Source: an uncultured virus (IMG/VR IMGVR_UViG_3300009376_000009)
Taxonomy: Duplodnaviria; Heunggongvirae; Uroviricota; Caudoviricetes
Virus record (IMG/VR): IMGVR_UViG_3300009376_000009
Strand: one strand, 5' to 3'
DNA length: 20,000 nt
Shown here: piece by piece, positions 1-20,000 of the stretch
Layout: every line of letters begins with the position of its first letter
Numbering within the stretch: the first letter of the stretch is position 1
Translations under genes and position numbers: made by a program
The notes under the pieces: generated by a model
Told to the model about the DNA's origin: nothing
Seen by the model: only the letters and a program-made list of their open reading frames with translations
Database searches by the model: none

Positions 1-1790
1 CAAGGTCAATGGTTCCATCACCATCTTCGTATGTTGCTGAAATACGAGTTTCTGTGTTACTTGAAAACATGGCCCCTACTATATCTTGCACAGCCTCGGT
101 AGTCAAAGGAGCGCCATCAAGAGTTGTGACGACGTCTATCGTCCCATCACCATCCTGATACGTAACTGATGTGTTAGTTTCAGTATTGCCTGAAAACATG
201 GCCCCTACCAAATCTTGAATATATTCATCAGTCCGAGGTTGAGTATCTGTGGCGACGAAATCAAGGGTTCCATCACCATCCTCATACGTCACAGAAATGT
301 TTGTTTCAGTATTCCCTGATACCATCGCCCCAACAATGTCCTGCACTTCCTCAGTCGTAAGGGCAGCGACATAATCAGGAGTAGCCCATGACCCAACCCC
401 ACTCAAACCTGAGTATTTCAAGAATTGGCCTGATGAACCACCGGCAGGAAGATGATGATTACCCGCAGTTGTAGGGTGAGTATAGACTGTATCATTGTCG
501 GTGGCTACGAAATCGAGAGTCCCGTCATCGTCTTGATATGTGACTGAAATATTAGTTTCAGTATTGCCCGATACCATAGCACCCACAATATCTTGAACTG
601 CTTCCGTAGTCAAGGGCGCACCATCAAGGGTAGTAACCACATCAATAGTGCCGTCACCATCTTGATAGGTAACAGAAGTATTCGTTTCGGTGTTCGACGT
701 AAACATAGCCCCGACTATATCCTGCACTTCCTCAGTTGTAAGTTGGGTATCAGCCGTCATATCGTCTACGACTAAATCTATTGTTCCGTCGCTATCATCA
801 TAGGTAACTGAAATCCTAGTTTCCGTATTCGATGTAAACATGGCTCCGACAACATCTTGAATATCTTCTGTGGGGTTAGTCCAAGTTGCTACCCCACTTG
901 TTAGAGCATATTTCAAATAATCGCCCGACGAACCCCCGGTTGGGACGTGCTTGTTTCCAGCAGTAGTAGGGTGAGTATAGACGGTATCTGTATCTGTCGC
1001 CACGAAATCAATCGTTCCATCACCATCCTGATAAGTAACTGAGATATTAGTTTCCGTGTTACCTGTGAGCATACCACCTACTATGTCTTGCACTTCCTCC
1101 GTTGTTAGGTTGGTATCTAAATCATCAACGACAAGGTCAATAGTCCCATCTCCGTCTTCGTATGTAGCCGAGATTCGTGTTTCGGTATTTCCTGAGAACA
1201 TGGCTCCTACTATGTCCTGAACGGCTTCTGTCGTAAGTGGTGCGCCGTCAAGAGTAGTAACCACATCTATTGTTCCATCCCCGTCTTCGTAAGTAACTGA
1301 TGTATTGGTTTCTGTGTTGCCTGAGAACATGGCTCCGACAATATCTTGCACCGCTTCGGTAGTTAGTGGTGCGCCATCGAGAGTTGTAACTACATCAATA
1401 GTCCCGTCTCCATCTTGATAGGTCACAGAAGTATTAGTTTCAGTATTCCCTGAAAACATGGCTCCTACAATATCTTGAACTTCCTCAGTAGATAACTGAG
1501 TATTAGTGTCTGCGGTCATGTCGTCCACAACTAAGTCAATTGTGCCGTCACCGTCTTCGTAAGTGGCGGCAATACGAGTTTCAGTATTCCCTGAAAACAT
1601 AGCCCCGACAATATCCTGAACGGCTTCGGTGGTCAATGGTGCGCCATCTAAGGTCGTGACCACATCTATTGTGCCGTCGCCATCTTGATATGTAACTGCT
1701 GTATTGGTTTCGGTATTACCGGAGAACATAGCACCGACAATATCCTGAATATACTCATCAGTCCGGGGCTGTGTATCAGTAGCAGCAATA
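1..1790 (-). repeat. Coding tandem repeats of ~43 aa (QDIVGAMFSGNTETNxSVTYQDGDGTIDxV), 12 copies visible
   Basis: QD(I/L/V)VG motifs near 81, 209, 335, 587, 716, 851, 1082, 1211, 1340, 1469, 1610 and 1739. Spacing is mostly 129 nt, with many synonymous differences between copies. Confidence 0.9.
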
Positions 1791-3853
1791 GTCATATCTG
1801 TCCCATCAGGGGTTAACGAAACGTTAGAGCCAGCAACCAATTTAATATCCTGTGTTCCTGAACTTGCCCCACCTGCTGTTAAGCGCAGAAGAACATCGTT
1901 AGAGGAATCAACCCAAGAAGAAGTGTAGGTATTTTGGGTGTTAGTGGTTGTGTCGGGAGGAACTACCCAATCACCGTCCTCCCTAAGATACTTGGTAGTA
2001 GTGGCTCCGCCATCTCTTGCAGGAACTAAAGCGGCTGTGCCGGGGCTTGTTGAGCCTGCGAACGTCGAGTAAGTGGTATCAGGAGAAGTTAAGGTAATGA
2101 GGAAGGGGTCGCCCGAAGTCCCGGCTCCTGTTAAGTTCGTCCCAAGTGAGCCTGTGGCGGTCACAAACTTCACATATTCGCCTTCTTGCACATCTTCGTT
2201 GTCGCCGCCACTATCTACAATCTTGAAGCCATCCCCCATGTCTACTGTATCTGTATTTGTCGTAAAAGTAAGTGCGCTTTGCATATAGGTCGTCAAGCGA
2301 CTCATAGTGGCCTTCCTATTCGTTCCTCCTGCGCCATTATCTACAATCATAAGGTCAGCATCAACTAACGCTTCACCAATGTCGGTCATACCATCAATAT
2401 CAAGACTAAATGCTGTTCCTGATAATCCGATACCACCGTTTGCCGTAGCAGAATACGTAGTATTTGTGTCTGCGGAGGAAAATGTAATTGTGTCCGTTCC
2501 AGCATTCGTGGTAATCGTCATACCACCCGCCGCTACAAGAGTTAAGTCATCTCCCGCAGAAGCCGCAAGTGAAGTTTGGCCGGACACCGCAATACTGTCG
2601 AAAGCGTTAGCACTACCCCCCGCCGCAGCCCACTCAATACCGTCCGCCCCCGAATTAACGGTCAAAACTTGGTTTGCGGTTCCAATCGCTAATACGCCTA
2701 ATGCACCATGTCCTTGTCCGTACAATACTGAGTTTCTAGCAGCGTATTCGATACCCGTTCCTCCTGCGGCCACAGGTAATCTGAGTGTGCTTCCTCTTGC
2801 TCTGTAAACTCCTTCTGCTACTTGAGTGTAATTCCAATCTCCAAGCACTTTGGGTCTTTTCACCGTATGAATCTCTGATGAGTTAATATCGGTGAATAAC
2901 GTAGAGCCATAGAGTTTTGCACCACCTTCTATCTCCAACGAATAGCAATCCAAAATTAGATTAGAGCGAATCTGTGCATAATGTGCTGAGTTTGTTGGTT
3001 TACCTATTTTAAGGCCGTGATATTTCACATTGAAAGTATTGAATCCTGCTGTTCCCGATGGCCCACGATTAGCGTCGCCATTGACGGGAAGATACCACGT
3101 CGTTGAATTAGGAACAAACCTAACTGTCGAAAGCCCCCAATCAGTAGCAACGACACCCCTATGAGCAGTAACGGATGCGGTAGGTGAAACGTCCATATCC
3201 AAAGTAAGTGACCCATCAAAACTGAACTCCTTCGTTAAATCCGCTTCTGTGCGAGTCAACGGTTTGATAGGAGCATCAGAATCAAGGCTAAGAGCATCTA
3301 CTTTTCCAAAAGAATTGCTTTGAGTTGGGACAAAAGTAGGTGAGAAGTAAACTGTTGAAGAGTCTGTAATGAATTGAAGATGAGGATATACCCCGTCTTC
3401 CAAAGCAATACTGATATTCGCTCCGGGCTTGAACTTAAAAGTTACATTTCCCCTTGAAGTAGAATTATCGAACATTCCGTTTTCTGCTGTATTGAGTGAA
3501 GCGTCCGTAAGGAACGTAACATAGCAATTGTTGGTTGGGGCTGACCCTGTAAACACCACCGAAGCAGTAGAAGTTGACGATATACAACCCGCCTTCTTGA
3601 TTACAAGGGGGGCGTTGCCTTTGAGATTTGCTACCGCATTGAGTCTAAACCCTCTCCCTGTGGCGGTATCATTCTGAATAGTTATGCTGTTACAATAGAA
3701 ATCGGAATCAAAATGCGCTGCATTTGTCGCAGTCCCGGTGAAAACTAAGTCATCCGTGCCGCCCGAAGTAAGTGTGGGCGCACCCACTTCGGCCCAATTG
3801 TCTGCTTCTGTAACTACGGAAGATGCAGAGCCATCCCAAGTAAATGTTCCCAT
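1..3853 (-). CDS. Very large repeat-rich virion fibre/adhesin-like protein (3' end truncated by the window edge, >1280 aa)
   Basis: Absent from the ORF track because it runs off the window. ATG at 3853 (MGTFTWDGSASSVVTEADNW...), and I read it in one frame to the left edge (Met codon at 70 is in frame). Thr/Gly/Asp-rich, with fibre-type motifs (LPVAAGGTG, GTANQVLTVNSG, KYLREDGDW, YTHPTTAGNKHVPTGGSSG). Lies downstream of head genes. Confidence 0.85.
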   Translation of the reverse strand, partial: MGTFTWDGSASSVVTEADNWAEVGAPTLTSGGTDDLVFTGTATNAAHFDSDFYCNSITIQNDTATGRGFRLNAVANLKGNAPLVIKKAGCISSTSTASVVFTGSAPTNNCYVTFLTDASLNTAENGMFDNSTSRGNVTFKFKPGANISIALEDGVYPHLQFITDSSTVYFSPTFVPTQSNSFGKVDALSLDSDAPIKPLTRTEADLTKEFSFDGSLTLDMDVSPTASVTAHRGVVATDWGLSTVRFVPNSTTWYLPVNGDANRGPSGTAGFNTFNVKYHGLKIGKPTNSAHYAQIRSNLILDCYSLEIEGGAKLYGSTLFTDINSSEIHTVKRPKVLGDWNYTQVAEGVYRARGSTLRLPVAAGGTGIEYAARNSVLYGQGHGALGVLAIGTANQVLTVNSGADGIEWAAAGGSANAFDSIAVSGQTSLAASAGDDLTLVAAGGMTITTNAGTDTITFSSADTNTTYSATANGGIGLSGTAFSLDIDGMTDIGEALVDADLMIVDNGAGGTNRKATMSRLTTYMQSALTFTTNTDTVDMGDGFKIVDSGGDNEDVQEGEYVKFVTATGSLGTNLTGAGTSGDPFLITLTSPDTTYSTFAGSTSPGTAALVPARDGGATTTKYLREDGDWVVPPDTTTNTQNTYTSSWVDSSNDVLLRLTAGGASSGTQDIKLVAGSNVSLTPDGTDMTIAATDTQPRTDEYIQDIVGAMFSGNTETNTAVTYQDGDGTIDVVTTLDGAPLTTEAVQDIVGAMFSGNTETRIAATYEDGDGTIDLVVDDMTADTNTQLSTEEVQDIVGAMFSGNTETNTSVTYQDGDGTIDVVTTLDGAPLTTEAVQDIVGAMFSGNTETNTSVTYEDGDGTIDVVTTLDGAPLTTEAVQDIVGAMFSGNTETRISATYEDGDGTIDLVVDDLDTNLTTEEVQDIVGGMLTGNTETNISVTYQDGDGTIDFVATDTDTVYTHPTTAGNKHVPTGGSSGDYLKYALTSGVATWTNPTEDIQDVVGAMFTSNTETRISVTYDDSDGTIDLVVDDMTADTQLTTEEVQDIVGAMFTSNTETNTSVTYQDGDGTIDVVTTLDGAPLTTEAVQDIVGAMVSGNTETNISVTYQDDDGTLDFVATDNDTVYTHPTTAGNHHLPAGGSSGQFLKYSGLSGVGSWATPDYVAALTTEEVQDIVGAMVSGNTETNISVTYEDGDGTLDFVATDTQPRTDEYIQDLVGAMFSGNTETNTSVTYQDGDGTIDVVTTLDGAPLTTEAVQDIVGAMFSSNTETRISATYEDGDGTIDL

Positions 3854-8274: not shown

Positions 8275-9260
8275 TAGCCCTCCAACCAATACCATTTCTC
8301 GTCATTCAATACGGCTCCGTAGTATACTCTGAATTGTATACTGAGATAATCCTCTCGCGTAACGTTGAAGAAATCAATGTAGTGATAATCCCAATCGTAG
8401 TGGTATGTGTCGTAGGTGGATGAACCATTGTAGAGAAGACGTAGTTGGGACGTTGTTGTCGTATTATTGATGTAGACGTCAATTGTTACGGTAACTGTAA
8501 CATTCGCCATACAACTGAAATCAACATCGAAGTCATTCAGCAATTTACTGCTATTCGTAGTGTTGTTGGTATACCAATAAGAGTTGACTGAGTAGAAGAA
8601 AGCATCGCAATCCTCTGTGACTTCCTCTTCCTCTTGCTCATATTCACAAGAGCCATCATCGTGAGTAGCGGTTTCGTTGTAGTTAAGGGCTACGGGGTCT
8701 GTGCAGCCATATATCGCTTGTTCCTGCTCCCCTTCATCAAAATCGAAATCAATGACTACGTTCTCAAATAGGTCTATGGTTCCGTTTTCAACCTCAATAA
8801 AGGCGTGATGCGTTCCTTCGCTCAAATTATGAAATCTCTCCGCAAAGAAATACTGATTACGGAATGCGGGGCTTACTCCACTTCGTTCCTCCCCATCCAA
8901 TGAGATGTAGTATTCAATAGTGTGTGCGGTGTTACAGTAGTTATCATCTTGTAATTCAACATTGAATAAGGCGTCGTATTCGATAACGTAATGATTTACG
9001 TTTAGGCTCCAAGACTCTTCACAAGAATGTGGAGTTATGTCGGGGTCATCGTCCTCTGCCCCCAACCAAGCGATACCGAAATCAATACCACTCTGATGAA
9101 GGCCGGTCATCAATAGAGCAAGAATAGAGCCTATTGTGATTATAAGCGACCTTAACTCAGTAAAGCGGTCATTCAATTCAGAAATGATGCTTGGCTCATC
9201 ATGCCTATGGGGATGAGAGGGAGTTACCTCATGTGAGTGTGTTGCATCGCTCGCGCTCAT
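8274..9260 (-). CDS. Membrane-anchored acidic protein with a GCTD-x3-LNY-x6-DDGSC motif
   Basis: 328 aa, single TM segment (LIITIGSILALLMTGL), motif YGCTDPVALNYNETATHDDGSCEY, and many N-x-S/T sequons. Confidence 0.75.
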   Translation of the reverse strand: MSASDATHSHEVTPSHPHRHDEPSIISELNDRFTELRSLIITIGSILALLMTGLHQSGIDFGIAWLGAEDDDPDITPHSCEESWSLNVNHYVIEYDALFNVELQDDNYCNTAHTIEYYISLDGEERSGVSPAFRNQYFFAERFHNLSEGTHHAFIEVENGTIDLFENVVIDFDFDEGEQEQAIYGCTDPVALNYNETATHDDGSCEYEQEEEEVTEDCDAFFYSVNSYWYTNNTTNSSKLLNDFDVDFSCMANVTVTVTIDVYINNTTTTSQLRLLYNGSSTYDTYHYDWDYHYIDFFNVTREDYLSIQFRVYYGAVLNDEKWYWLEG

Positions 9261-9267
9261 ATCTTAG

Positions 9268-9594
9268 TCATGGCGCGAGTGTTTCTTCAAAGTTGAGGGA
9301 GTCTGAGATAATTTCCGCGTTTGCAACGAAGCGATTCTTACAGATAATTTCACCGTAGGTTTCGTTTATCGCATACTGCTCGTAGATACTTGGGGTAACA
9401 TACAACCACGAATCGCGGGTGTCGTTGGTAGTTACAATTAGCACAAAGACAATGTTGTTCGTGCCTTTATTCGTTACTATGGTGTTCTCACGGACTTCAC
9501 AGAAAGAGGCATCCAAGAAAATGCCGGTGACCCCAATCGAAGCGCACATGAGTAGTGCTACTATCCCGATTGCAACTTTTTTCTTGCTAGACAC
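9268..9594 (-). CDS. Membrane-anchored small protein, probable paralogue of 7936..8274
   Basis: KKK plus hydrophobic N-terminus; LYVTPSIYEQYAINETY resembles VFVGPETYEEYEVGYVY. Confidence 0.65.
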   Translation of the reverse strand: MSSKKKVAIGIVALLMCASIGVTGIFLDASFCEVRENTIVTNKGTNNIVFVLIVTTNDTRDSWLYVTPSIYEQYAINETYGEIICKNRFVANAEIISDSLNFEETLAP

Positions 9595-9623
9595 CCTTAT
9601 TCATGCTGATAGCGTCGGGGTGA

Positions 9624-11015
9624 TTAGTCAACATTTCCATCATAATCTTCGTTTCCGGGCTGAGAGTTTTCCAAAGGTGTTTCGCCAACGTTTGCAGGCT
9701 CTAAGTCCTTCCTTTCATCTCCATCTGCTTCAAGGGGTAGATTCAACATATCAAGAGTTTGATTTAGGGTTAAGATACCGTTACTGTAACCCAATACTGC
9801 TCTCTGCATAACATTCAATGGGGTTTCGCTATCCATCGCGTCAAATCGAATTACCGGCAAATCTTGTCTGCGGTATGGAATATTGAGTAAATCCAAGTGA
9901 ATGCCGAAAAGGGCTATGCAGGCTTCTCCAAGAATCTTGTGCATTCGACTAATCGCTTGAACAGCCCATAGATTAGCATTGAAAGTCGCAGCGAAGGTGC
10001 TTCCGCGCTCCTGTCCTGCGGCCACACGCGGCACTTGAAGCACAGCCGCAATATCTGCGTTTATTGCGTCTAAAAAGTCGCTACTGTTAGGCAGGGAGTT
10101 TTCCAAGTCTACATGATGCAATTCTACGTAGTGGGGAAGGACAGGGATTTGGTCGCCTCGTAGACCTTCAAAGAGCGATATTACCTCGTCCATAATGTGA
10201 GTTAGTCGTTCATTCTGTTCTGCGGGGTCTTGAATATGCTCAATCGCCTCCTTGTTAATCGTAATGAATTGCTTGGTCATTGAGTCCTCAAGCGACAGTC
10301 GGTTATTCATCGAGTTATACTTCATGCGTATGGCTTGCTTTAGGGCCGAGAATCGAGAAGCACCCCAAATACCGTAAGTTTTCCGTCCTCTGTTATCCAC
10401 GAACCAATTGCTGCGGTAATCAATCTTGATATGCAGAATCTCGTTAGCAGGGATTTCCTTAGCATTAAGTTTCATTTCCCTTAACAAATACTTCGTGGCT
10501 CTCGTTATGGGATTGTCTTCTGTCGCATCGAAAATAGAATCTATCCCGCCTCTTTCGTCTACAATAGTAATCTGCTTAACAGGAAGGTTCTGTAAGTCAG
10601 TAATACCGACTCCTGCCTTTCCGACTATCTTATTCACATCGTTCCCATATACCATCATGTTTCTCATGGCGTTGATGAGAATATCATCGAAATCAATGCG
10701 CTCTTCTACCAATTCACGTATAGCATCTCTGATTTGAGCGTTCTTCCCCTTCTCGTAGTTTACTTCGTAGTTATTGGCTGTGAGCGATACCGCACGAACA
10801 GCCCCATTCAATTCAGGGTCAAGTTTCAGCATCAAGTCATACATATCAAACTCGTTGTCGTAGTTACTATCGCTCTGTAACCTCTCTGTATCTCGCATGA
10901 CGTCAGGAATACCCGCAACAGCGCGAAAACTCTTATTCGTAGGGATTCTACCGCTTGCGGTCTGCCTCTTTGGTTCGCTTCTCCAAAACTGATACCATTT
11001 CGGCCCTTCTACCAT
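9624..11015 (-). CDS. Portal protein
   Basis: 463 aa. DPELNGAV, MMVYGN, EILHIK, YGIWGASRF, IAAVLQVP and GILTLNQ motifs are typical of HK97/lambda-type portals. First gene of the head operon. Confidence 0.88.
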   Translation of the reverse strand: MVEGPKWYQFWRSEPKRQTASGRIPTNKSFRAVAGIPDVMRDTERLQSDSNYDNEFDMYDLMLKLDPELNGAVRAVSLTANNYEVNYEKGKNAQIRDAIRELVEERIDFDDILINAMRNMMVYGNDVNKIVGKAGVGITDLQNLPVKQITIVDERGGIDSIFDATEDNPITRATKYLLREMKLNAKEIPANEILHIKIDYRSNWFVDNRGRKTYGIWGASRFSALKQAIRMKYNSMNNRLSLEDSMTKQFITINKEAIEHIQDPAEQNERLTHIMDEVISLFEGLRGDQIPVLPHYVELHHVDLENSLPNSSDFLDAINADIAAVLQVPRVAAGQERGSTFAATFNANLWAVQAISRMHKILGEACIALFGIHLDLLNIPYRRQDLPVIRFDAMDSETPLNVMQRAVLGYSNGILTLNQTLDMLNLPLEADGDERKDLEPANVGETPLENSQPGNEDYDGNVD

Positions 11016-11126: not shown

Positions 11127-11244
11127 CAATTCCTTTATTCCTTCAAAGACGTAGATAATAGAATATGCTTACTATCTCATAGTTACTCTAAGAACAGGAG
11201 GGGGGCATCTCCAAAATAGCCTCTTTGAAGGAATAAAGGAATTG
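11127..11244. repeat. Perfect 23-bp inverted repeat separated by 72 bp
   Basis: CAATTCCTTTATTCCTTCAAAGA (11127-11149) and its exact reverse complement TCTTTGAAGGAATAAAGGAATTG (11222-11244). Confidence 0.9.
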
Positions 11245-12828: not shown

Positions 12829-14323
12829 TTTCAATACTGATTTTGCTATGGCGCGTAGTCGTACTGATGTGAAATATTTCTACCGATGGCTTGGTTATAC
12901 GTGGGGGGAGCATATTGGCGAATGGATGGAGATGTATGGGGCGCGTGATGATTCCTCTGTTCATCGTGTTTGCGTAATTGCTCCACGTGACCACAGCAAA
13001 TCTACTACTCTGCGGGTAAAACTACTTCACTCTGCTCTTTTTGAGAAGTGGCGTAACAAACCTTTCACCTGTTGGCTCTTTTCAGCAAGCAAGGACTTGG
13101 CTATGCGACGTTTGGAGGAAATTAGGGAGGATATGAAGCGTCACCCTCAACTCAGTAAGTATCTCAATACGAAAAGAGGCAACAAACTTGAATTACATTT
13201 CAATAACGGGGCATGGATTCGTGCTACTTCGGTTGGAGCCGCTATTCGTGGGGAGCATCCCGCCTGTATTGCATTTGATGACGTTCTTGACGATATGGGC
13301 GATATGGATTGGACGAATATTCGACATTGGTTCCGAAAGAAGGTCACTCCTATGCTTAGTCCCGGCACTTCCATATATGTCGTCGGCACACCGATGAGTA
13401 TGGTAGACCTATACCATAGCGAGATGTTACAGAATGAGGCTTGGAAATCAGGCGTATGGTCGAGTATTCCTAATTGGGATGAATACAAATCAAATCCCGA
13501 TATAGAACCGGAAGCACTTTGGCCTGAGTTTAGGCCCATCAAGTTTCTTTTAGAGCAAAAGCAAGCGATGGGAGAGTTGGCGTTTGTGCAGGAATATCTG
13601 TGTAAAGTGGTTGATGATGAAGCGGCTGTTTATCCACGTAATCTGACTCGTAGAAACCTCAATATGGACGCGGTCTTTGAAAATGAGAAGTTAACCAACG
13701 ATAAGTATGCGATAGGTTTCGACCCTTCTCATGGTTTGGGTCAAGATTACAGCGTCATGGTTTGTTTGAGGCAAGATTCTGATGGGTATATTCACCTTTG
13801 TAATATTTGGCGACGAAATGACTTCCCTCCTTCTCGACAAGCCGACATGATGATTGATTGGAATAAGCGATACGGGACTCCTGCCTTCGCTGTTGAGTCG
13901 GTGGGCTTCCAACAACTGTACGAGAGTCTACTAACTCAGAAAAATGCTGGTATTGACTACCGTGAGAGCAAAGTGAGTAATAGGACGATGAAGCAAGGTC
14001 TTCTTAATCGAATGCGCGTGTGGTTTGAGCGCGAATTGGTCTGCTTTCCCTATGGAGATGATTTCACAAGGAAAACCATGAATATTCTGTTAGAGGAACT
14101 AGAGCATCATGCTTGGAGGGACGGTTTAATCGAAGATTTGGCTCGTCATAACGACTGTGCTATGGCTTTGGCTCATGCACTTGACCAATTCAGTTATAAG
14201 ACGCCCGCGTCGCCTGTAATTATGAAAACGATGAAGAAAGGCGAATGGGTTGGTGGTTCTACACGTCCTCAACGGACTGAAACTTCGGGTGTTGGTGGTA
14301 AAGTAATACGGAGGGTTGATTGA
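12821..14323 (+). CDS. terL: Terminase large subunit
   Basis: 500 aa. Walker A variant APRDHSKST, Walker B CIAFDD, coupling motif VVGTP, FVQEY, and RNase H-like nuclease motifs IGFDPS, DYS, HNDCAMA. Confidence 0.92.
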   Translation: MSSFNTDFAMARSRTDVKYFYRWLGYTWGEHIGEWMEMYGARDDSSVHRVCVIAPRDHSKSTTLRVKLLHSALFEKWRNKPFTCWLFSASKDLAMRRLEEIREDMKRHPQLSKYLNTKRGNKLELHFNNGAWIRATSVGAAIRGEHPACIAFDDVLDDMGDMDWTNIRHWFRKKVTPMLSPGTSIYVVGTPMSMVDLYHSEMLQNEAWKSGVWSSIPNWDEYKSNPDIEPEALWPEFRPIKFLLEQKQAMGELAFVQEYLCKVVDDEAAVYPRNLTRRNLNMDAVFENEKLTNDKYAIGFDPSHGLGQDYSVMVCLRQDSDGYIHLCNIWRRNDFPPSRQADMMIDWNKRYGTPAFAVESVGFQQLYESLLTQKNAGIDYRESKVSNRTMKQGLLNRMRVWFERELVCFPYGDDFTRKTMNILLEELEHHAWRDGLIEDLARHNDCAMALAHALDQFSYKTPASPVIMKTMKKGEWVGGSTRPQRTETSGVGGKVIRRVD

Positions 14324-14643: not shown

Positions 14644-14753
14644 AAAAAAATGTTGAAAATCGTTTGAGGGGGTAGGCATTGGATATAGAGATAGGCGGTG
14701 CAGATTTGGAAGCGCCGCAGTACAGCGTTTTTCGTGATTTTTCAATTGCACGG

Positions 14754-14760
14754 CCTTAAG
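14754..14760 (+). promoter_or_regulatory. TATA-like box (CCTTAAG) for the GC-rich plus-strand block
   Basis: Ends 23 nt upstream of ATG 14784, preceded by T-tracts. Confidence 0.5.
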
Positions 14761-14783
14761 GGGGGGAAGCCCCATTGTAGACC

Positions 14784-15659
14784 ATGTCTACATCAGTAGT
14801 ACTAGGAGTTGAAGCAAGCGCGGGCGTACCTGCGCGAATGATTGCCTGCCGTGAGGCGCTGGATGAGGCCGGCGCATCGGCAGAGTGGAGGGCTGCTCTC
14901 GGAGAGCGCACAGGCCTACGGGCCGACCTTCCAGACTGCACGACCCTATGGGGTTGGGCGCAGAGGGCAGGGCGTGAGATGCTCAGGGTCGTCTTCACAG
15001 ACGGCAGCATTCACGACGTGGCCCACGCTGGCGACCTGAACGTGGCCCTCATCGAGAGCCACTTTGCCCGGTCTGTCTACGACAGCACCGGCTCAGACGG
15101 CGAGGGCGGCAGGGTCTACCGGGAGGTCACCCTTGACGGAGTGGTAGAGCGCACCACCGACAGGCAGACCACGTACACCGACTTGACCCTGACGACGAAG
15201 GAGGCTCAGGCCTGCCCCGCCGAGACATGCGGCGGCTGGCTGCACCCGGTCACCTTCACCTGTGGACGCTGCGGCGGCAACTTCCCGGAGGGAGGCGAGG
15301 TCGGAGTCCGAGAGGACGTAGCGAACCGGTACGAGCCGAAAGTCAAGGGCTTCTACCACATCGTCTTCGGTGAGAACGGCGAGGCCGTGAGCCTCACACC
15401 CCGAACCCTGACCCGCAGGAAGGGCAGCGACAAGGCCGGACTCAACCCGGAGTCGTGGGAAATCTTCGCTCGCTGGGAGCGCGGCGGCAAGCCGGCATGG
15501 GCGCAGCAGGCATTCGGCCTCGTGGCCGTGCAGGGGAACGACGGCACAACCTTCCTCCCGGTGGCCTTCCACCGAGAGCAGGCAGCAGCAGCCCGCGAGT
15601 GGGGCATCACCATTCAGGGCAACGGCCCGAACATGGGAATCAGGGAGGTGACGGAGTAG
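14784..15659 (+). CDS. Hypothetical protein with central zinc-ribbon motif
   Basis: 291 aa, CPAETC...CGRC, strong GC3 bias, upstream promoter and downstream hairpin. Confidence 0.75.
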   Translation: MSTSVVLGVEASAGVPARMIACREALDEAGASAEWRAALGERTGLRADLPDCTTLWGWAQRAGREMLRVVFTDGSIHDVAHAGDLNVALIESHFARSVYDSTGSDGEGGRVYREVTLDGVVERTTDRQTTYTDLTLTTKEAQACPAETCGGWLHPVTFTCGRCGGNFPEGGEVGVREDVANRYEPKVKGFYHIVFGENGEAVSLTPRTLTRRKGSDKAGLNPESWEIFARWERGGKPAWAQQAFGLVAVQGNDGTTFLPVAFHREQAAAAREWGITIQGNGPNMGIREVTE

Positions 15660-15663
15660 GCGC

Positions 15664-15697
15664 GGAGTGGGGGCCGCCTTCGGGCGGCCTCCCTCCC
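15664..15697 (+). terminator. GC-rich cUUCGg-tetraloop hairpin after the gene
   Basis: GGCCGCC-TTCG-GGCGGCC (15672-15689) immediately after stop 15659. No U-tract, so it may be a stability/processing hairpin instead. Confidence 0.55.
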
Positions 15698-15730
15698 AAC
15701 GCCGAAACGTTTTGTAACGGAGGTGAGAAG

Positions 15731-16321
15731 ATGAGCAAGCGAAGCGAGAACGAGCGCCGGAAATCCGGCATCCCGGTGAAGCCGAAGCCGACCCCGGAGG
15801 GGAAGGACGGCGGCAGAACGAACGAGAAGATTGGCTCGGTCGCAGACCGGCCCCACGTCGGCATACCGCTAACGCCGAGCCGAGAGCGCAGGATGATTGA
15901 CCTAGCGATTGAGTATTGGGACCACGACATGAGGGGGTCACCGTGCCTAGACGCAACGGCGACCTACTTCGGCATCAGACACCTGCTGCACTTCATGACT
16001 TCGATGAAGGACTTCCTCAGAGCCATGAGGAAGGGCGGCCACACCATCAGGCAGCGCACGAGCCTCATCCGCAAGAAGCCCTACACGGTGCAAGAGTTTT
16101 GTAACAGGCTAGACAGCATCCTCAACCGGGCGCAGGCCCACCACGAGGGGCGCGTTCCTGATGCGTGGGTCTTCACGACCCGCCACATCTACGAGGGCGA
16201 CGAGAGCCACACGCACCACATTCACGCCACCGACACGCACGGCAGAGTTGTGGTTGATACGGCCCCGATGGGGAGCAACGACGACCGAGAGGTCACAGGA
16301 GTTTGGGGGGTGTGGTCTTGA
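15731..16321 (+). CDS. Hypothetical protein, possible papain/C39-like Cys-His-Asp fold
   Basis: 3' part of track ORF 15455..16321; ATG 15731 follows GGAGGTGA RBS. Motifs PCLDATATYFG and HIHATDTHGRVVVDT. Confidence 0.65.
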   Translation: MSKRSENERRKSGIPVKPKPTPEGKDGGRTNEKIGSVADRPHVGIPLTPSRERRMIDLAIEYWDHDMRGSPCLDATATYFGIRHLLHFMTSMKDFLRAMRKGGHTIRQRTSLIRKKPYTVQEFCNRLDSILNRAQAHHEGRVPDAWVFTTRHIYEGDESHTHHIHATDTHGRVVVDTAPMGSNDDREVTGVWGVWS

Positions 16322-16491
16322 GCGAGAGTTTTGTAACGGTTGTCTACCAACTCCCGCAGCCGCACACCGGCTTCAGATGTTTTGTAACGGAAGTTCCCGA
16401 TGGGATGAGATTCGTCATGCCTACATGGGTGGGCTTCGATGGCTTCTGCCTCGGAGTCGCAATAGGGGGTGAGATTGATGGCGAGGGCTAA
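16318..16491 (+). CDS. Small hypothetical protein (57 aa)
   Basis: TTG start overlaps the upstream TGA, GGGGTG RBS, fills the operon gap, and encodes two motif copies as FVT. Confidence 0.5.
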   Translation: MSESFVTVVYQLPQPHTGFRCFVTEVPDGMRFVMPTWVGFDGFCLGVAIGGEIDGEG

Positions 16492-16633
16492 GTGCGACAA
16501 GAATGGATGCAACTTCGCCAACGCGAGAAGGGTGAAGCGTCACCCATTCAAGATAAAGAAAGGCGACTTGCACCGCGTCCCGATAGTTCGGTCTTGCCGG
16601 ATTTGTGGGCGGTACTTGGTGGTGAGGCCATGA
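16478..16633 (+). CDS. Small basic zinc-finger-like protein (51 aa)
   Basis: Not in the track. MARAKCDKNGCNF...RSCRICGRYLVVRP, GGGGTGAG RBS, and its stop overlaps the next ATG (ATGA). Confidence 0.7.
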   Translation: MARAKCDKNGCNFANARRVKRHPFKIKKGDLHRVPIVRSCRICGRYLVVRP

Positions 16634-16809
16634 GTGACGAAGAACGTTTTGTAACGGAGGGATTTACCTTCGATACCTACGCGGGCCGTAAGGGTGCATG
16701 GGTTAAAGCGACCCGGTGCGTATGCCCCTACTGTGAAGCCGACAACATGACTGTTGAGATAATCGAGAGGGTTGACCCTGACCCTGTGGAAGAAGAAGGG
16801 CAAGAATGA
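16630..16809 (+). CDS. Small acidic protein with CPYC motif (59 aa)
   Basis: 3' part of track ORF 16492..16809; ATG 16630 follows GGTGAGG RBS. Confidence 0.65.
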   Translation: MSDEERFVTEGFTFDTYAGRKGAWVKATRCVCPYCEADNMTVEIIERVDPDPVEEEGQE

Positions 16810-16833
16810 ATGTTTTGTAACGGAGGTATGTGT

Positions 16834-17169
16834 ATGGATATAGACAACATGAACACCGAGCAGTTAGTTGCTTGGTTCGTGGACTACCAGCGCAGGCACA
16901 CCGGCACAGGGTCAGGGACGAGTATGAGGGAGGCTGTGAAAGCACTCTTTTTCGCGTCCCGAAGTGTAGACGCGAACGTTGGGGCTGTATGGTCCCAACT
17001 GCTCGCGGACGACGCTGCTCTGAACCGCGTGATGCAGATGCTATGGAACCACGAGCCGGAGCCGCTAATCAGCGACGGAGCCTACCCTGAGTTGAATCTG
17101 ATTGGGACTGACGCCCCTGACGATTCGGTTCGGGTTGCAGGCGCGTTCCTACCACGCAGGCTGCTCTGA
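16834..17169 (+). CDS. Hypothetical protein (111 aa)
   Basis: Track ORF 16810..17169; GGAGGT RBS favours ATG 16834. Confidence 0.7.
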   Translation: MDIDNMNTEQLVAWFVDYQRRHTGTGSGTSMREAVKALFFASRSVDANVGAVWSQLLADDAALNRVMQMLWNHEPEPLISDGAYPELNLIGTDAPDDSVRVAGAFLPRRLL

Positions 17170-17210
17170 TTGAGTAGGGACGTTTTGTAACGACATGGGG
17201 ATTACGTAAG

Positions 17211-17273
17211 CCCCCGCCTCTTGACTCAGGGGGGCGGGGGTGGGCTACCAGCCGCGAGGCTCGCGTTTTTTTT
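17211..17273 (+). terminator. Two GC-rich hairpins plus T8 tract ending the plus-strand block
   Basis: CCCCCGCCTCTTG/CAGGGGGGCGGGGG (G-U pairs work on +), then CGCGA-GGC-TCGCG followed by TTTTTTTT at 17266-17273. Confidence 0.65.
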
Positions 17274-17453
17274 CGACAATATATCTCCCGTTACAAAACG
17301 TTTTTAGCCTGCCCGTTACAAAACGTTGGGGCGTTACAAAACGTTAGAGAGAGAGCGCGTTACAAAACGTTAGAGAAAGAGAACGTTACAAAACGTTCGT
17401 TAGAGAGAGAACGTTACAAAACTTGAGAGAGAGAGAGCGTTACAAAACGTGGT

Positions 17454-17485
17454 GGGCAGGCCGGCGTTGCAGCACCGGCCCGCCC
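17454..17485 (-). terminator. GC-rich hairpin downstream of the 17502 gene, bracketed by two motif copies
   Basis: GGGCGGGCCGGTG...CGCCGGCCTGCCC on the minus strand; mismatches resolve as G-U only on minus. Confidence 0.5.
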
Positions 17486-17501
17486 TTGCGTTACAAAACG
17501 A

Positions 17502-17663
17502 TTACTCGTCGTCTTGCTCGATTGGCTGGTAGCGACCTGCGCCCTTGACGAATCCGACGAACTTCCAAAGCGAAGCGAGAGGGAAGCCCCACTCGTTCTT
17601 CTCGTTTTCGGGTATGTCGTCCTTCGTAGGCATCCTGCCGCGTGCTGCTTGGGTTGGTTCCAT
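17502..17663 (-). CDS. Small hypothetical protein (53 aa)
   Basis: Track ORF 17502..17696; ATG 17663 lies 21 nt after TTCATAAG. Confidence 0.65.
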   Translation of the reverse strand: MEPTQAARGRMPTKDDIPENEKNEWGFPLASLWKFVGFVKGAGRYQPIEQDDE

Positions 17664-17684
17664 GATACACCCTATACGCCGCCC

Positions 17685-17714
17685 CTTATGAACCACACGG
17701 CTCCGTTACAAAAC
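17685..17714 (-). promoter_or_regulatory. Promoter cassette GTTTTGTAAC-N10-GGTTCATAAG
   Basis: Same architecture as at 18295-18324, 19176-19205 and 19851-19880. Confidence 0.8.
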
Positions 17715-17841
17715 GTTTACTACCACCTTCCACCGTTACAAAACGTTAGTGTTACAAAACGTTAGAGAGATTTGTAACGTGAGTAATGTTGTTTCTGGAC
17801 TCGCGCCGAAGGCGCGAGAGAGAGAGAGCGTTACAAAACGC

Positions 17842-18273
17842 TCAAGCATCGTCCATCTCACTCCACGAAATGTCTACCTTGACTATGCACACGTGCGGCG
17901 CAGCATCGGGGTGGTAGTCGTCTTTCTCCCAAGTAGCCATGACCCGACTGAGGATGAAGGCCATGATTAGCCGACCCGTTTCGATGATGGATTTCATGCT
18001 GAACGTCTGCCCCATCTGCTCTTCGTTAGCGGGGGTGCGTCCCATTTGGAAGGTGAAGGAATCGCCCGTCTTCTCCATCCATGCCTTGAGTGCCTCCTGC
18101 GGTAGTGCGCCGTCGAAGGGCATCAACCCTCCACGTGCGAGGACTCTCTGAGTGTGCTTCACCCACTCGTCTGACCCCTCAACGGGTGTCTGTCCCGGCA
18201 TTCTGATATTCCCTGTTCTACCCTTACCTCTGCGGCGGAAGCGCCATGACCGAGGGTCGTCCTTCTTGCTCAT
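17842..18273 (-). CDS. Hypothetical protein (143 aa), basic N-terminus
   Basis: ATG 21 nt after TTCATATA; a motif copy lies 2 nt after the stop. Confidence 0.75.
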   Translation of the reverse strand: MSKKDDPRSWRFRRRGKGRTGNIRMPGQTPVEGSDEWVKHTQRVLARGGLMPFDGALPQEALKAWMEKTGDSFTFQMGRTPANEEQMGQTFSMKSIIETGRLIMAFILSRVMATWEKDDYHPDAAPHVCIVKVDISWSEMDDA

Positions 18274-18294
18274 AGTCAGTCATCTTGGCCGTCC

Positions 18295-18324
18295 TATATG
18301 AACCTGTGGCTCCCGTTACAAAAC
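18295..18324 (-). promoter_or_regulatory. Promoter cassette GTTTTGTAAC-N10-GGTTCATATA
   Basis: Fixed 10-nt motif-to-box spacing and 21 nt to ATG 18273. Confidence 0.8.
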
Positions 18325-18416
18325 GTTTCTACCCGTTACAAAACGTTCGTTACAAAACGTTAGCGTTACAAAACGTAGAGAGAGAGATTTGTAACAGAGG
18401 ATATATTGTCGGTGTG

Positions 18417-18588
18417 CCTACCGAGAGAGCATGGAAACAAGACACAACTCGCGGGTCGTGACGTTACAAAACTCTCTCGGCAGGACTTGAATGGTGCAAC
18501 GTCACTATGGACGTGACCCGCGAATCCTGTGTTACAAAACGTGGTGGTCGCCCCCCGGACGGCTCATCAAGAAACCGAGGGGGCAACC
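18417..18588 (-). ncRNA. Candidate structured RNA (long pseudoknot or two-state fold plus upstream hairpin)
   Basis: Helices of 6+10+11 bp and a crossing 13-bp helix. All non-Watson-Crick positions are G-U on minus and A-C on plus. No convincing ORF. Confidence 0.55.
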
Positions 18589-18610
18589 CCGAAAAACTCC
18601 GTTACAAAAC

Positions 18611-18772
18611 CTATCTACTCAACTCGACTATCACTTCCTCTTCTTCTCTCCATTGAGTTACAAAACATTCTGCTGGTGGCGGCAGCGCGAGCGTTACAAA
18701 ACTTACCTCACGGAATTGGTCAGCCAAATCACGAAGCGCCCAATACGTTACAAAACATGGAATGCTACTCAT
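18611..18772 (-). CDS. Small hypothetical protein (53 aa) encoding three motif copies as FVT
   Basis: Not in the track. MSSIPCFVTYWALRDLADQFREVSFVTLALPPPAECFVTQWREEEEVIVELSR, GGTGAGG RBS, overlaps the upstream stop, and its own stop abuts a motif copy. Confidence 0.55.
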   Translation of the reverse strand: MSSIPCFVTYWALRDLADQFREVSFVTLALPPPAECFVTQWREEEEVIVELSR

Positions 18773-19154
18773 CTTCTTCCTCACCTACCTCAAGTGTTTC
18801 AAGTGCGTTGTGGAGCATTCTCGCCTGTCGGCTCGCCTGCTCAACGAATACTCTGTTCTTCTCGATTGCGAGGCCGCTTTTGATGCTGTCTTTGGTCCCT
18901 CTGACTCCGTTACAAAAGTCTACCCAATCCCGTACCATCGTGGCTATGTGCGGTGTGAAACCTAGTACTGCTCTCATTTGTGCGATATGAAGGCGTACTG
19001 CGGTCACTACATGAGCGCACTTCTCGCATACATCACCTTCAACGAGGGGGTGTCCTATGTTCCTCTGTCCGTCTTGAATCCTACCTAGCCTGCCTTCGCA
19101 TCCTGTGTGGGATGCTGCAAGCCCGAAGGCGCATAGGCCGTCTGTTCCGTCCAT
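18765..19154 (-). CDS. Hypothetical protein with N-terminal Cys-rich (Zn-binding-like) region
   Basis: 129 aa, C..C...GHPLVEGDVCEKC..VTAVRL; ATG 21 nt after TTCATATA. Confidence 0.75.
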   Translation of the reverse strand: MDGTDGLCAFGLAASHTGCEGRLGRIQDGQRNIGHPLVEGDVCEKCAHVVTAVRLHIAQMRAVLGFTPHIATMVRDWVDFCNGVRGTKDSIKSGLAIEKNRVFVEQASRQARMLHNALETLEVGEEEDE

Positions 19155-19175
19155 GATACGCTCATCCTATGGGGG

Positions 19176-19205
19176 TATATGAACCTGTGGCTTCTGTTAC
19201 AAAAC
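19176..19205 (-). promoter_or_regulatory. Promoter cassette GTTTTGTAAC-N10-GGTTCATATA
   Basis: Fixed 10-nt spacing and 21 nt to ATG 19154. Confidence 0.8.
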
Positions 19206-19332
19206 GTTGGGGTCCGTTACAAAACGTTGCTGTTACAAAACGTTGGCGTTACAAAACGTTGGTGTTACAAAACTTACAGAGAGAGAGCGCCGTTACAAAA
19301 CTTAGAGAGAGAGAGAGGCGTTACAAAACCCA

Positions 19333-19360
19333 CCCCCACCGGAGATTTCCCCGGCGGGGG
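19333..19360 (-). terminator. GC-rich hairpin downstream of the 19381 gene, bracketed by two motif copies
   Basis: CCCCCGCCGG...CCGGTGGGGG on minus with one G-U pair. Confidence 0.5.
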
Positions 19361-19380
19361 CTTACGTCCCGTTACAAAAC

Positions 19381-19809
19381 CTAACCCTCGTCGGGCAAGT
19401 CATCGGTCTGCATGGCGTTGTGACGGATTTGAAGTTGCGCCAAGTTTAGCACGCCTTCCAAAACGACAGCAGCGAAGCGGCGAGGCATCTGCCTTCTCAT
19501 TCCCAACTCACGCTTGATGCTGGTTATCGCGCCGCCGCCTTTGCCGGTCACTCGCATATCGCTGGTTCCCCCGCCAAAACGAATCTCTTGCTCAACCATC
19601 GTCAGTATCAGTCCGTAGCGGTATGGTACTGTTCCGCCTGCTGCGCTCGCTGCAACGACCATATCAACGGCCTTGCGGACACCAAGCACGCCTTCATCGA
19701 ACTGCTGCGATAGTACTACTTCTTCGTCCGGGTTACCGTCCTCATCCATAGTAGCCATGCTAGCACATAGTCCAAGCCCGTCCGGGCTTACAAAGTCTGT
19801 TATGTCCAT
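19381..19809 (-). CDS. Hypothetical protein (142 aa)
   Basis: Track ORF 19381..19839. ATG 19839 is only 11 nt from the TATA box, whereas ATG 19809 has a GGAGG RBS inside the predicted leader. Confidence 0.75.
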   Translation of the reverse strand: MDITDFVSPDGLGLCASMATMDEDGNPDEEVVLSQQFDEGVLGVRKAVDMVVAASAAGGTVPYRYGLILTMVEQEIRFGGGTSDMRVTGKGGGAITSIKRELGMRRQMPRRFAAVVLEGVLNLAQLQIRHNAMQTDDLPDEG

Positions 19810-19850
19810 TCGTATCTCCCTCCTATTACAATTTTTCATACTCGCCCCCC

Positions 19851-19880
19851 CTTATGAACCCCACGACCCTGTTACAAAAC
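19851..19880 (-). promoter_or_regulatory. Promoter cassette GTTTTGTAAC-N10-GGTTCATAAG
   Basis: Fixed 10-nt spacing; preceded by a four-copy motif array (19871-19946). Confidence 0.75.
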
Positions 19881-20000
19881 GTTCCGAGCCTGTTACAAAA
19901 CGTTTGCGTTCTCTGTTACAAAACGTTAGAGAGAGTGTTACAAAACTCTGTTCTCCGCCGAAGGCGGAGAGAGAGAGAGAGGCCCGCCGAAGGCGGGCCG

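Follow-up and report, generated by a model that had tools for sequence, protein, structure and literature searches.

The window (the whole stretch of DNA analysed, 20,000 nucleotides of an uncultured tailed virus) carries head genes, a portal gene and a terminase gene, with a block of small genes and their promoters to the right of the terminase. Clusters of its proteins recur on contigs of about 70 kb. Among five related genomes of 65-72 kb, PolB is found in all five (the lowest-E PolB matches among those listed are haloviruses), a chaperonin in two and a match to the PriS model in none; one relative (G003) encodes both an archaeal-type clamp loader (RFC) and GroEL. Magroviruses, which infect Poseidoniales, are head-tail viruses of 65-100 kb that have a chaperonin, PolB and replication genes of archaeal type. 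The genes seen here fit the set described for them, the Krittikaviridae/group E having a terminase, PolB and a GroEL-type chaperonin (PMC11706807); a search of that paper for ncRNA or non-coding gives no match. From the gene set we infer the host and the family: the window virus is probably a head-tail virus of about 70 kb, magrovirus-like, with a marine archaeal host. Genome scans revealed no terminase relative and, among 80 titled loci, no host-linked motif array. Elsewhere in the window, a fibre-like ORF on the minus strand (2-3853, more than 1,280 aa) contains many near-identical repeats; a perfect 23-bp inverted repeat with a spacer of about 72 nt (11128-11244, z -4.0 on plus) lies where the portal and phosphoesterase genes diverge; and the GC content reaches 62-67% at 14750-16250 versus about 45% in the structural genes.

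A 10-mer, GTTACAAAAC, occurs in the window in 41 exact copies and in 46 with one mismatch (1.3 expected); it is restricted to a 5-8-kb block adjoining the terminase gene. On the transcribed strand the exact copies read as UUUU / GUUUUGUAAC in 7/7 cases to the left and in 34/34 to the right of the convergence near 17240. Relatives have private 10-mers of their own in the corresponding block. The window (15709-19946) and the loci L002, L014, L020, L024, L029, L036, L048, L252, L265, L282 and L435 each have their own repeat of about ten bases, in up to about 80 copies, placed ahead of promoters, past stops and within ORFs; it is polarised with transcription in the window, and in G005 it is palindromic, often spaced 45-62 bp and phased ahead of promoters. 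The palindromic form and the promoter phasing in G005 point to a DNA-binding site, and we presume that the 10-mer is probably a DNA site first. In halovirus HF2 intergenic repeats of 29-58 bp (about a dozen) are tied to TATA promoters and proposed as regulator sites (PMC8707807). Both repeats are promoter-linked in an archaeal tailed virus; that of the window, unlike those of HF2, is a short 10-mer present in dozens of exact copies and lies also within ORFs and RNA, and no RNA knot is described for HF2 in the sections consulted.

The element considered here, 18417-18532, is the last one of a minus-strand unit that starts near 19156 and includes two small ORFs, a hairpin and the knot, after which come a motif array and a promoter (Table 1). 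The core GGTTCATA is found four times on the minus strand of the window, each time about 20-30 nt ahead of an ATG. The hairpin of the unit is missing from the close relative L128 and hence lies outside the conserved core. Hairpins are seen 3' of genes at 17454-17485 and 18544-18590 (minus) and at 15669-15692 (plus), all of them stronger on the transcribed strand; the first one has compensatory changes in L128. The plus strand has an ORF of 19 codons at 18431 and, at 17794-17812, 19122-19132 and 19950-20000, palindromes with a three-base GAA loop, a loop that is very stable in DNA.

Table 1. Features of the knot unit and its surroundings, in the order of transcription
Feature	Coordinates	Strand	Basis
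TATA-like core GGTTCATA, ~10 bp past motif array; putative start of the knot-ending transcript	19178..19185	minus	
ORF of 129 aa, first gene of the knot unit; no meaningful family	18765..19154	minus	
ORF of 53 aa with three in-frame motif copies; no family	18611..18772	minus	
G-U-containing hairpin just 5' of the knot	18544..18590	minus	z -3.97 on minus
5' GUUUUGUAAC copy; start point of every homologue	18531..18540	minus	motif scan, alignment
Stem 1, outer 5' strand (6 + 10 bp, 2-nt bulge)	18515..18532	minus	fold
Stem 1 bulge, 9 nt (10 nt in L128)	18506..18514	minus	fold
Stem 1, inner 5' strand, 11 bp	18495..18505	minus	fold
Loop 1, 10 nt; its 3' end is the invariant AAG-Y ahead of CC	18485..18494	minus	alignment, fold
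Stem 2, 5' strand, 14 nt; last two bases start the junction motif	18471..18484	minus	fold
Junction GUUUUGUAAC copy: G,U in stem 2; UU unpaired (loop 2); UGUAAC in stem 1	18463..18472	minus	
Stem 1, 3' strand, 27 nt; self-folding alternative CRCRRC/GUUGUG	18442..18468	minus	fold
Loop 3, 11 nt; length varies; extra motif copies in L003, L004	18431..18441	minus	fold, scan
Stem 2, 3' strand, terminates in the invariant GG	18417..18430	minus	scan, fold
Invariant CA tail past stem 2	18415..18416	minus	helix comparison
Downstream motif array (one inverted, four sense) and next TATA-like promoter; putative terminator/promoter block	18297..18395	minus	
Next gene, 143 aa, no family, own promoter	17842..18273	minus	

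The sequence-only reading claimed that the minus strand forms here a long stem with two bulges whose loop pairs 13/13 with a downstream segment, in the crossing topology A-B-C-B'-A'-C'; the topology and every listed pairing are indeed in the sequence. Stem 1 (27 bp) sets 18527-18532 (6 bp), 18515-18524 (10 bp) and 18495-18505 (11 bp) against one continuous strand, with bulges of 2 and 9 nt and three G-U pairs. Stem 2 joins 18472-18484 with 18417-18429 (13/13 paired, one G-U), and an extra U-G pair (18471/18430) brings it to 14 bp. All non-Watson-Crick pairs are G-U on the minus strand, as was said of the four imperfect positions, and the motif copy said to be built into the junction of the helices is there. 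By fold class the modelled element is an H-type pseudoknot (crossing helices, a short loop 2, compensatory change). With stem 2 held open ViennaRNA recovers stem 1 (26 bp, the outermost register slightly shifted), and the ViennaRNA MFE allows a pair between the C of the CA tail and the G of loop 1, with a pyrimidine bulged out.

The two best crossing helices of the window element sum to -55.7 kcal/mol on minus versus -42.5 on plus, while dinucleotide shuffles give -25.1 +/- 3.0 kcal/mol and none of the 200 is as strong as observed. None of the 1,136 sliding 141-nt windows on both strands of the 20 kb holds a stronger crossing pair than the knot. Loose knot scans also give many unrelated crossing pairs of -40 to -48 kcal/mol. 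The z-score of the nested MFE is -3.25 on minus and -1.32 on plus. An alternative local fold (CAGGAUU/AGUCCUG) had also been proposed; the first 72 nt do adopt it as their MFE, yet it does no better than chance (z -0.58, 59/200 shuffles as good), and its equivalent is seen in only 4/6 of the copies considered below.

A crossing-helix scan of 50 terminase loci recovered this architecture, on the equivalent strand, from L002, L003 and L004, and pattern scans added L128 and L273. This gives six distinct copies in about four lineages (window/L128, L003/L004, L002 and L273), identical sequences in further records being left out of the count; six is to be read as at least six, among the matches listed, and more homologues are probable. 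The nearest record (G001) is identical across the element and hence adds no variation. Two further pattern searches returned 34 loci with two real copies and 19 loci with three, and an exact 18-nt pattern matched no viral contig. A profile built from five copies (without L003) finds L003 at E 3e-17 and gives one full match per carrier; in the remaining 43 of 49 sources it finds nothing comparable, with four weak partial matches on motif pairs. The control is provided by the 138 loci that the search pattern caught: 131 have no motif arrays and give 1-8 bp, and the other seven are carriers, one of them cut by the contig end. Each genome has one knot, always on the transcribed strand and as the 3'-terminal element of a small unit driven by a promoter. 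The gene ahead of it encodes DUF3846 in three copies and is unrelated in the other three, which suggests that the module moves independently.

The comparison of homologues for covariation, suggested in the sequence-only reading, reveals compensatory changes in both helices. Stem 2 has 14, 14, 16, 17, 14 and 11 bp in the six copies, with 86/86 positions paired (10 G-U); between the invariant CC and the motif, which it misses by one base in L273, it is free of mismatches, and its sequence is rewritten between lineages with the pairing kept. Twelve of the first 14 stem-2 columns, counted from the outer end, have changed on both sides, at a register made uncertain by the variable length. As MAFFT failed to register the 3' halves, pairs were counted on helices anchored at the invariant CC/GG, and these counts lean toward the structure. 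Stem 1 (17-28 bp) is found in 6/6 copies, is weakest in L273 and has few single mismatches, including one C-A; loop 2 is 1-2 nt in 5/6. The elements of the window and L128 differ by five substitutions and one insertion. Two of the substitutions fall in stem 1, both producing G-U pairs, and the remaining changes are in the bulge and loop 1; the sequence immediately upstream is unrelated. Outside the helices, two motif copies, AAG-Y-CC and GG-CA are invariant in 6/6, and the junction GUUUUGUAAC copy is among them in every case.

The knot energy is unmatched by 200 shuffles in each of the six copies, which argues against a by-product of local duplication or inversion in a repeat-rich gap. The region is filled with repeats, and a CCUGCG direct repeat occurs in L003 and L004; nevertheless, differing sequences rebuild the same crossing helices at the same place, and this covariation contradicts such an origin so strongly that we consider it highly improbable.

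Under RNA parameters folding favours the transcribed strand in 5/6 copies, by 4-15 kcal/mol, and with DNA parameters the difference between the strands is at most 2.1 kcal/mol across copies; these models favour an element acting as RNA. Both crossing helices are kept through two-sided changes and the strand bias is mostly lost with DNA parameters, so that the proposal of selection on the minus-strand RNA is supported, and we believe that the element is a selected, strand-specific structured RNA. A structure in single-stranded DNA, such as a priming or origin signal in an iteron-like repeat field, would agree with the confinement of the repeat to the block beside the terminase gene, with the nearby plus-strand GAA-loop palindromes and with G-T pairs, which are tolerated in ssDNA hairpins. 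However, the strand advantage nearly vanishes with DNA parameters, the changes in the close relative add G-U pairs, and the element is always at the 3' end of a transcript; we regard this explanation as very unlikely.

No frame or peptide is common to the copies, and the window and L128 are separated by a one-base insertion. A frameshift or read-through pseudoknot was considered and rejected: the stop lies at 0, 0, +14, -70 and -89 nt, i.e., at no fixed spacing, and for read-through the frame past the stop is closed again at codon 3 in both L003 and L004, with no common peptide. A cis-regulatory leader (a riboswitch or an operator like that of T4 gene 32) was rejected as well, since the knot is separated from the next ATG by a TATA-like promoter and is followed by differing genes. 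Judged by the modelled folds, the pseudoknotted element is real, conserved and apparently undescribed, and belongs to a narrow magrovirus-like clade; its structure is well supported, and its function is a matter of interpretation.

We presume, at a probability of about 0.45, that the knot works at the 3' end: transcription would pass the internal motif and end just beyond the knot, which would resist decay and leave a stable viral small RNA. The module would be an ncRNA forming the 3' terminus of a short transcript, which the host archaeal RNA polymerase would make, presumably early. During transcription stem 1 would fold back over the internal GUUUUGUAAC copy; stem 2 would then join the last ~14 nt of the module to the loop, so that both stems stack coaxially into a long H-type pseudoknot. 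The internal U4 tract would thereby have two of its four U's hidden, and with these junction U's buried the internal copy would be a poor signal for termination or cleavage. The next U-tract just past the knot would be the termination point. The 3'-most strand would be locked in a helix of 11-17 bp, probably capped by loop 1 (AAG-Y) and the CA tail, and this putatively nuclease-resistant end would probably leave a stable small RNA of 105-175 nt once the upstream message decays.

The next U4 tract lies 5, 5, 8 and 9 nt past stem 2 in four of the six copies and at 42-43 nt in the window and L128, which counts against this reading. In Methanococcus U4 tracts are the terminator signal of aCPSF1 and are stronger in multiples (PMC8716108). 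Junction U's that are paired, together with a next U4 close behind stem 2 in 4/6 copies, speak for the 3'-end function, provided that the behaviour of aCPSF1 can be carried over from a methanogen. Lone motif copies lie within ORFs, which implies that hiding one U4 is not required. Protection alone could also be had from a plain hairpin, with which other genes here end, and so the invariant AAGYCC/GGCA may stand for more than that. Such invariance in the loop and tail hints at tertiary contacts or at a pocket for binding, and it keeps alive two other readings, a decoy and a ribozyme. As to the three roles named in the sequence-only reading (an ncRNA, a 3'-protective knot or a switch), a conserved structured RNA is borne out and the protective knot is favoured, while the particular alternative fold offered there for a switch is the one at chance level.

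It is tempting to propose that the knot acts in trans as a decoy, showing the virus's own repeat as a near-continuous duplex over the stack of stems 1 and 2, or presenting an AAGY/GGCA pocket, and titrating a repeat-binding protein (a viral regulator, a host terminator or a defence factor). There is one copy per genome whatever the upstream gene, the junction motif is paired in 6/6 copies, the repeat resembles a protein site (palindromic and phased in G005; compare the HF2 regulator sites proposed in PMC8707807), and the same region of sister viruses holds promoter-driven structured units without an ORF. On the other hand, RNA duplexes adopt the A-form, pairing at the junction is a trivial outcome for any knot that includes a motif, and an atlas search with the product of the neighbouring 107-aa gene yields no named family. 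If the motif is a DNA site, the junction copy may be retained for that, or may serve both as DNA and as RNA. We consider a decoy rather unlikely.

The second rival is a conformational switch or attenuator, in which stem 2 is constant and stem 1 alternates with a hairpin in its own 3' strand, toggling the junction U4 between termination and read-through. The nested MFE does retain stem 2 in 6/6 copies, with a local hairpin in place of stem 1; the CRCRRC/GUUGUG complementarity is present in 5/6 (GUUGUG is missing in L273), and the 5' segment can also pair with the first part of stem 2 (12 bp in L004). By our estimate, which uses a crude penalty, the knot is better than the best nested fold in 6/6 copies, by 1.4-15 kcal/mol: a gap of 1.4-5.4 kcal/mol in four copies suits a switch, but one of 12-15 in the window and L128 does not. 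The gene that follows is served by a promoter of its own and is not the same in all of the viruses, the alternative 5' fold is at chance level, and neither a trigger nor an output is evident, so we take a switch to be unlikely.

The third is a new self-cleaving ribozyme cutting a multi-gene early transcript. A small invariant core (AAG-Y-CC, GG-CA and the bulged pyrimidine) on a pseudoknot scaffold with variable helices speaks for it; however, few bases are invariant beyond the genome-wide repeat, stem 2 beside the core varies between 11 and 17 bp, and Rfam gives no HDV, hammerhead, twister or pistol match. We find a ribozyme doubtful. Bolder is the idea of a trans-acting RNA that mimics the virus's own DNA operator repeat as a pseudoknotted duplex (or else has a new AAG-Y-CC/GG-CA catalytic core) and is one of several unrelated, interchangeable cargo RNAs in a promoter-dense block; we consider it rather unlikely as well.

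The Rfam 15 cmscan of the window at E<=5 gave a single unrelated miRNA match elsewhere, and the six related loci gave none at the gathering score; the anatomy differs too, in line with the earlier statement that no known ribozyme class is recognised. HDV-like ribozymes have a 7-nt L3, a P1.1 and a conserved catalytic C in J4/2. They share the strand order A-C-A'-C' with the knot, whose motif alone could form a 3-bp hairpin at the place of P3. The class was rejected because the knot has 1-2 nt at the P3/L3 place, no P1.1 partner and no catalytic C, the bases ahead of the stem-2 3' strand differing in all lineages. The P4 helix of RNase P, with AAG-U-CC opposite GG-C (partner GGCUU) and a universal bulged U, resembles AAG-Y-CC/GG-C with its bulged pyrimidine; RNase P was rejected, since the bulge is C in 2/6 copies (L002, L273), the partner is GGCA, the rest of RNase P is absent and there is no Rfam match. 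Type III antitoxins (ToxI/CptI/TenpI) are small H-type pseudoknots in tandem short repeats of prokaryotes and viruses; here there is a single unit of 105-175 nt, and its neighbours have no ToxN/CptN/TenpN families in Pfam or PADLOC. A template RNA of a reverse transcriptase (retron/DRT/UG27) was rejected as well: PF00078 is found in 0/5 related records, four of them at least 99% complete, only one record searched being a knot carrier (65% complete). UG27 RNAs (bioRxiv 10.64898/2026.09.22.753630) have a cognate reverse transcriptase, unlike the related records searched here.

The known pseudoknots that end RNA-virus transcripts or block nucleases are tRNA-like structures and xrRNAs. Like the knot, they are H-type at the transcript end, with covarying helices and few conserved loop bases; unlike them, the knot is in a dsDNA virus with an archaeal-type promoter, its stems are far longer (17-28 and 11-17 bp), and in the four carriers examined it has neither the CCA end nor the cloverleaf of tRNA-like structures. 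By this analogy the knot works like a 3'-terminal viral pseudoknot and is a member of no family tested. In the literature we found no report of it, including the part consulted of a catalogue of 10,006 viral RNA candidates (PMC10690425), nor any structured RNA described from viruses of Poseidoniales. These are among the commonest archaea of the surface ocean. For such a small set of genomes the covariation is unusually clean, and the element occupies about 130 nt and is open to in vitro tests that do not need the uncultured host. The knot would open a way to study where transcripts of archaeal viruses end and how these ends are protected, and it draws attention to a part of the genome that seems to contain more RNAs still lacking annotation, along with a virus-specific repeat code.

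Other structured units are seen in relatives. In L435 (G005), three GC-rich, promoter-led plus-strand stretches of about 470 nt (9173-9645, 10104-10571 and 13400-13860) have no leader ORF or a short one, with a folding z of only -1.3 to -2.5 (30 shuffles). Past a TATA box of the same locus (14898-14986, plus) lies a tRNA-like unit with a 7-bp acceptor-like stem, a T-arm-like hairpin and a long arm, for which ARAGORN and Rfam give no call. A sister clade (L252 6244-6489, plus; L255, L271, L228, L251, L265, L287) has a different promoter-driven unit of about 190-245 nt with no ATG frame; sequence-only profiles reveal no link between it and the knot. This unit has covarying helices, with two-sided changes in 6 of 23 predicted pairs, and an end of the type AGUCC...C-run/G-run.
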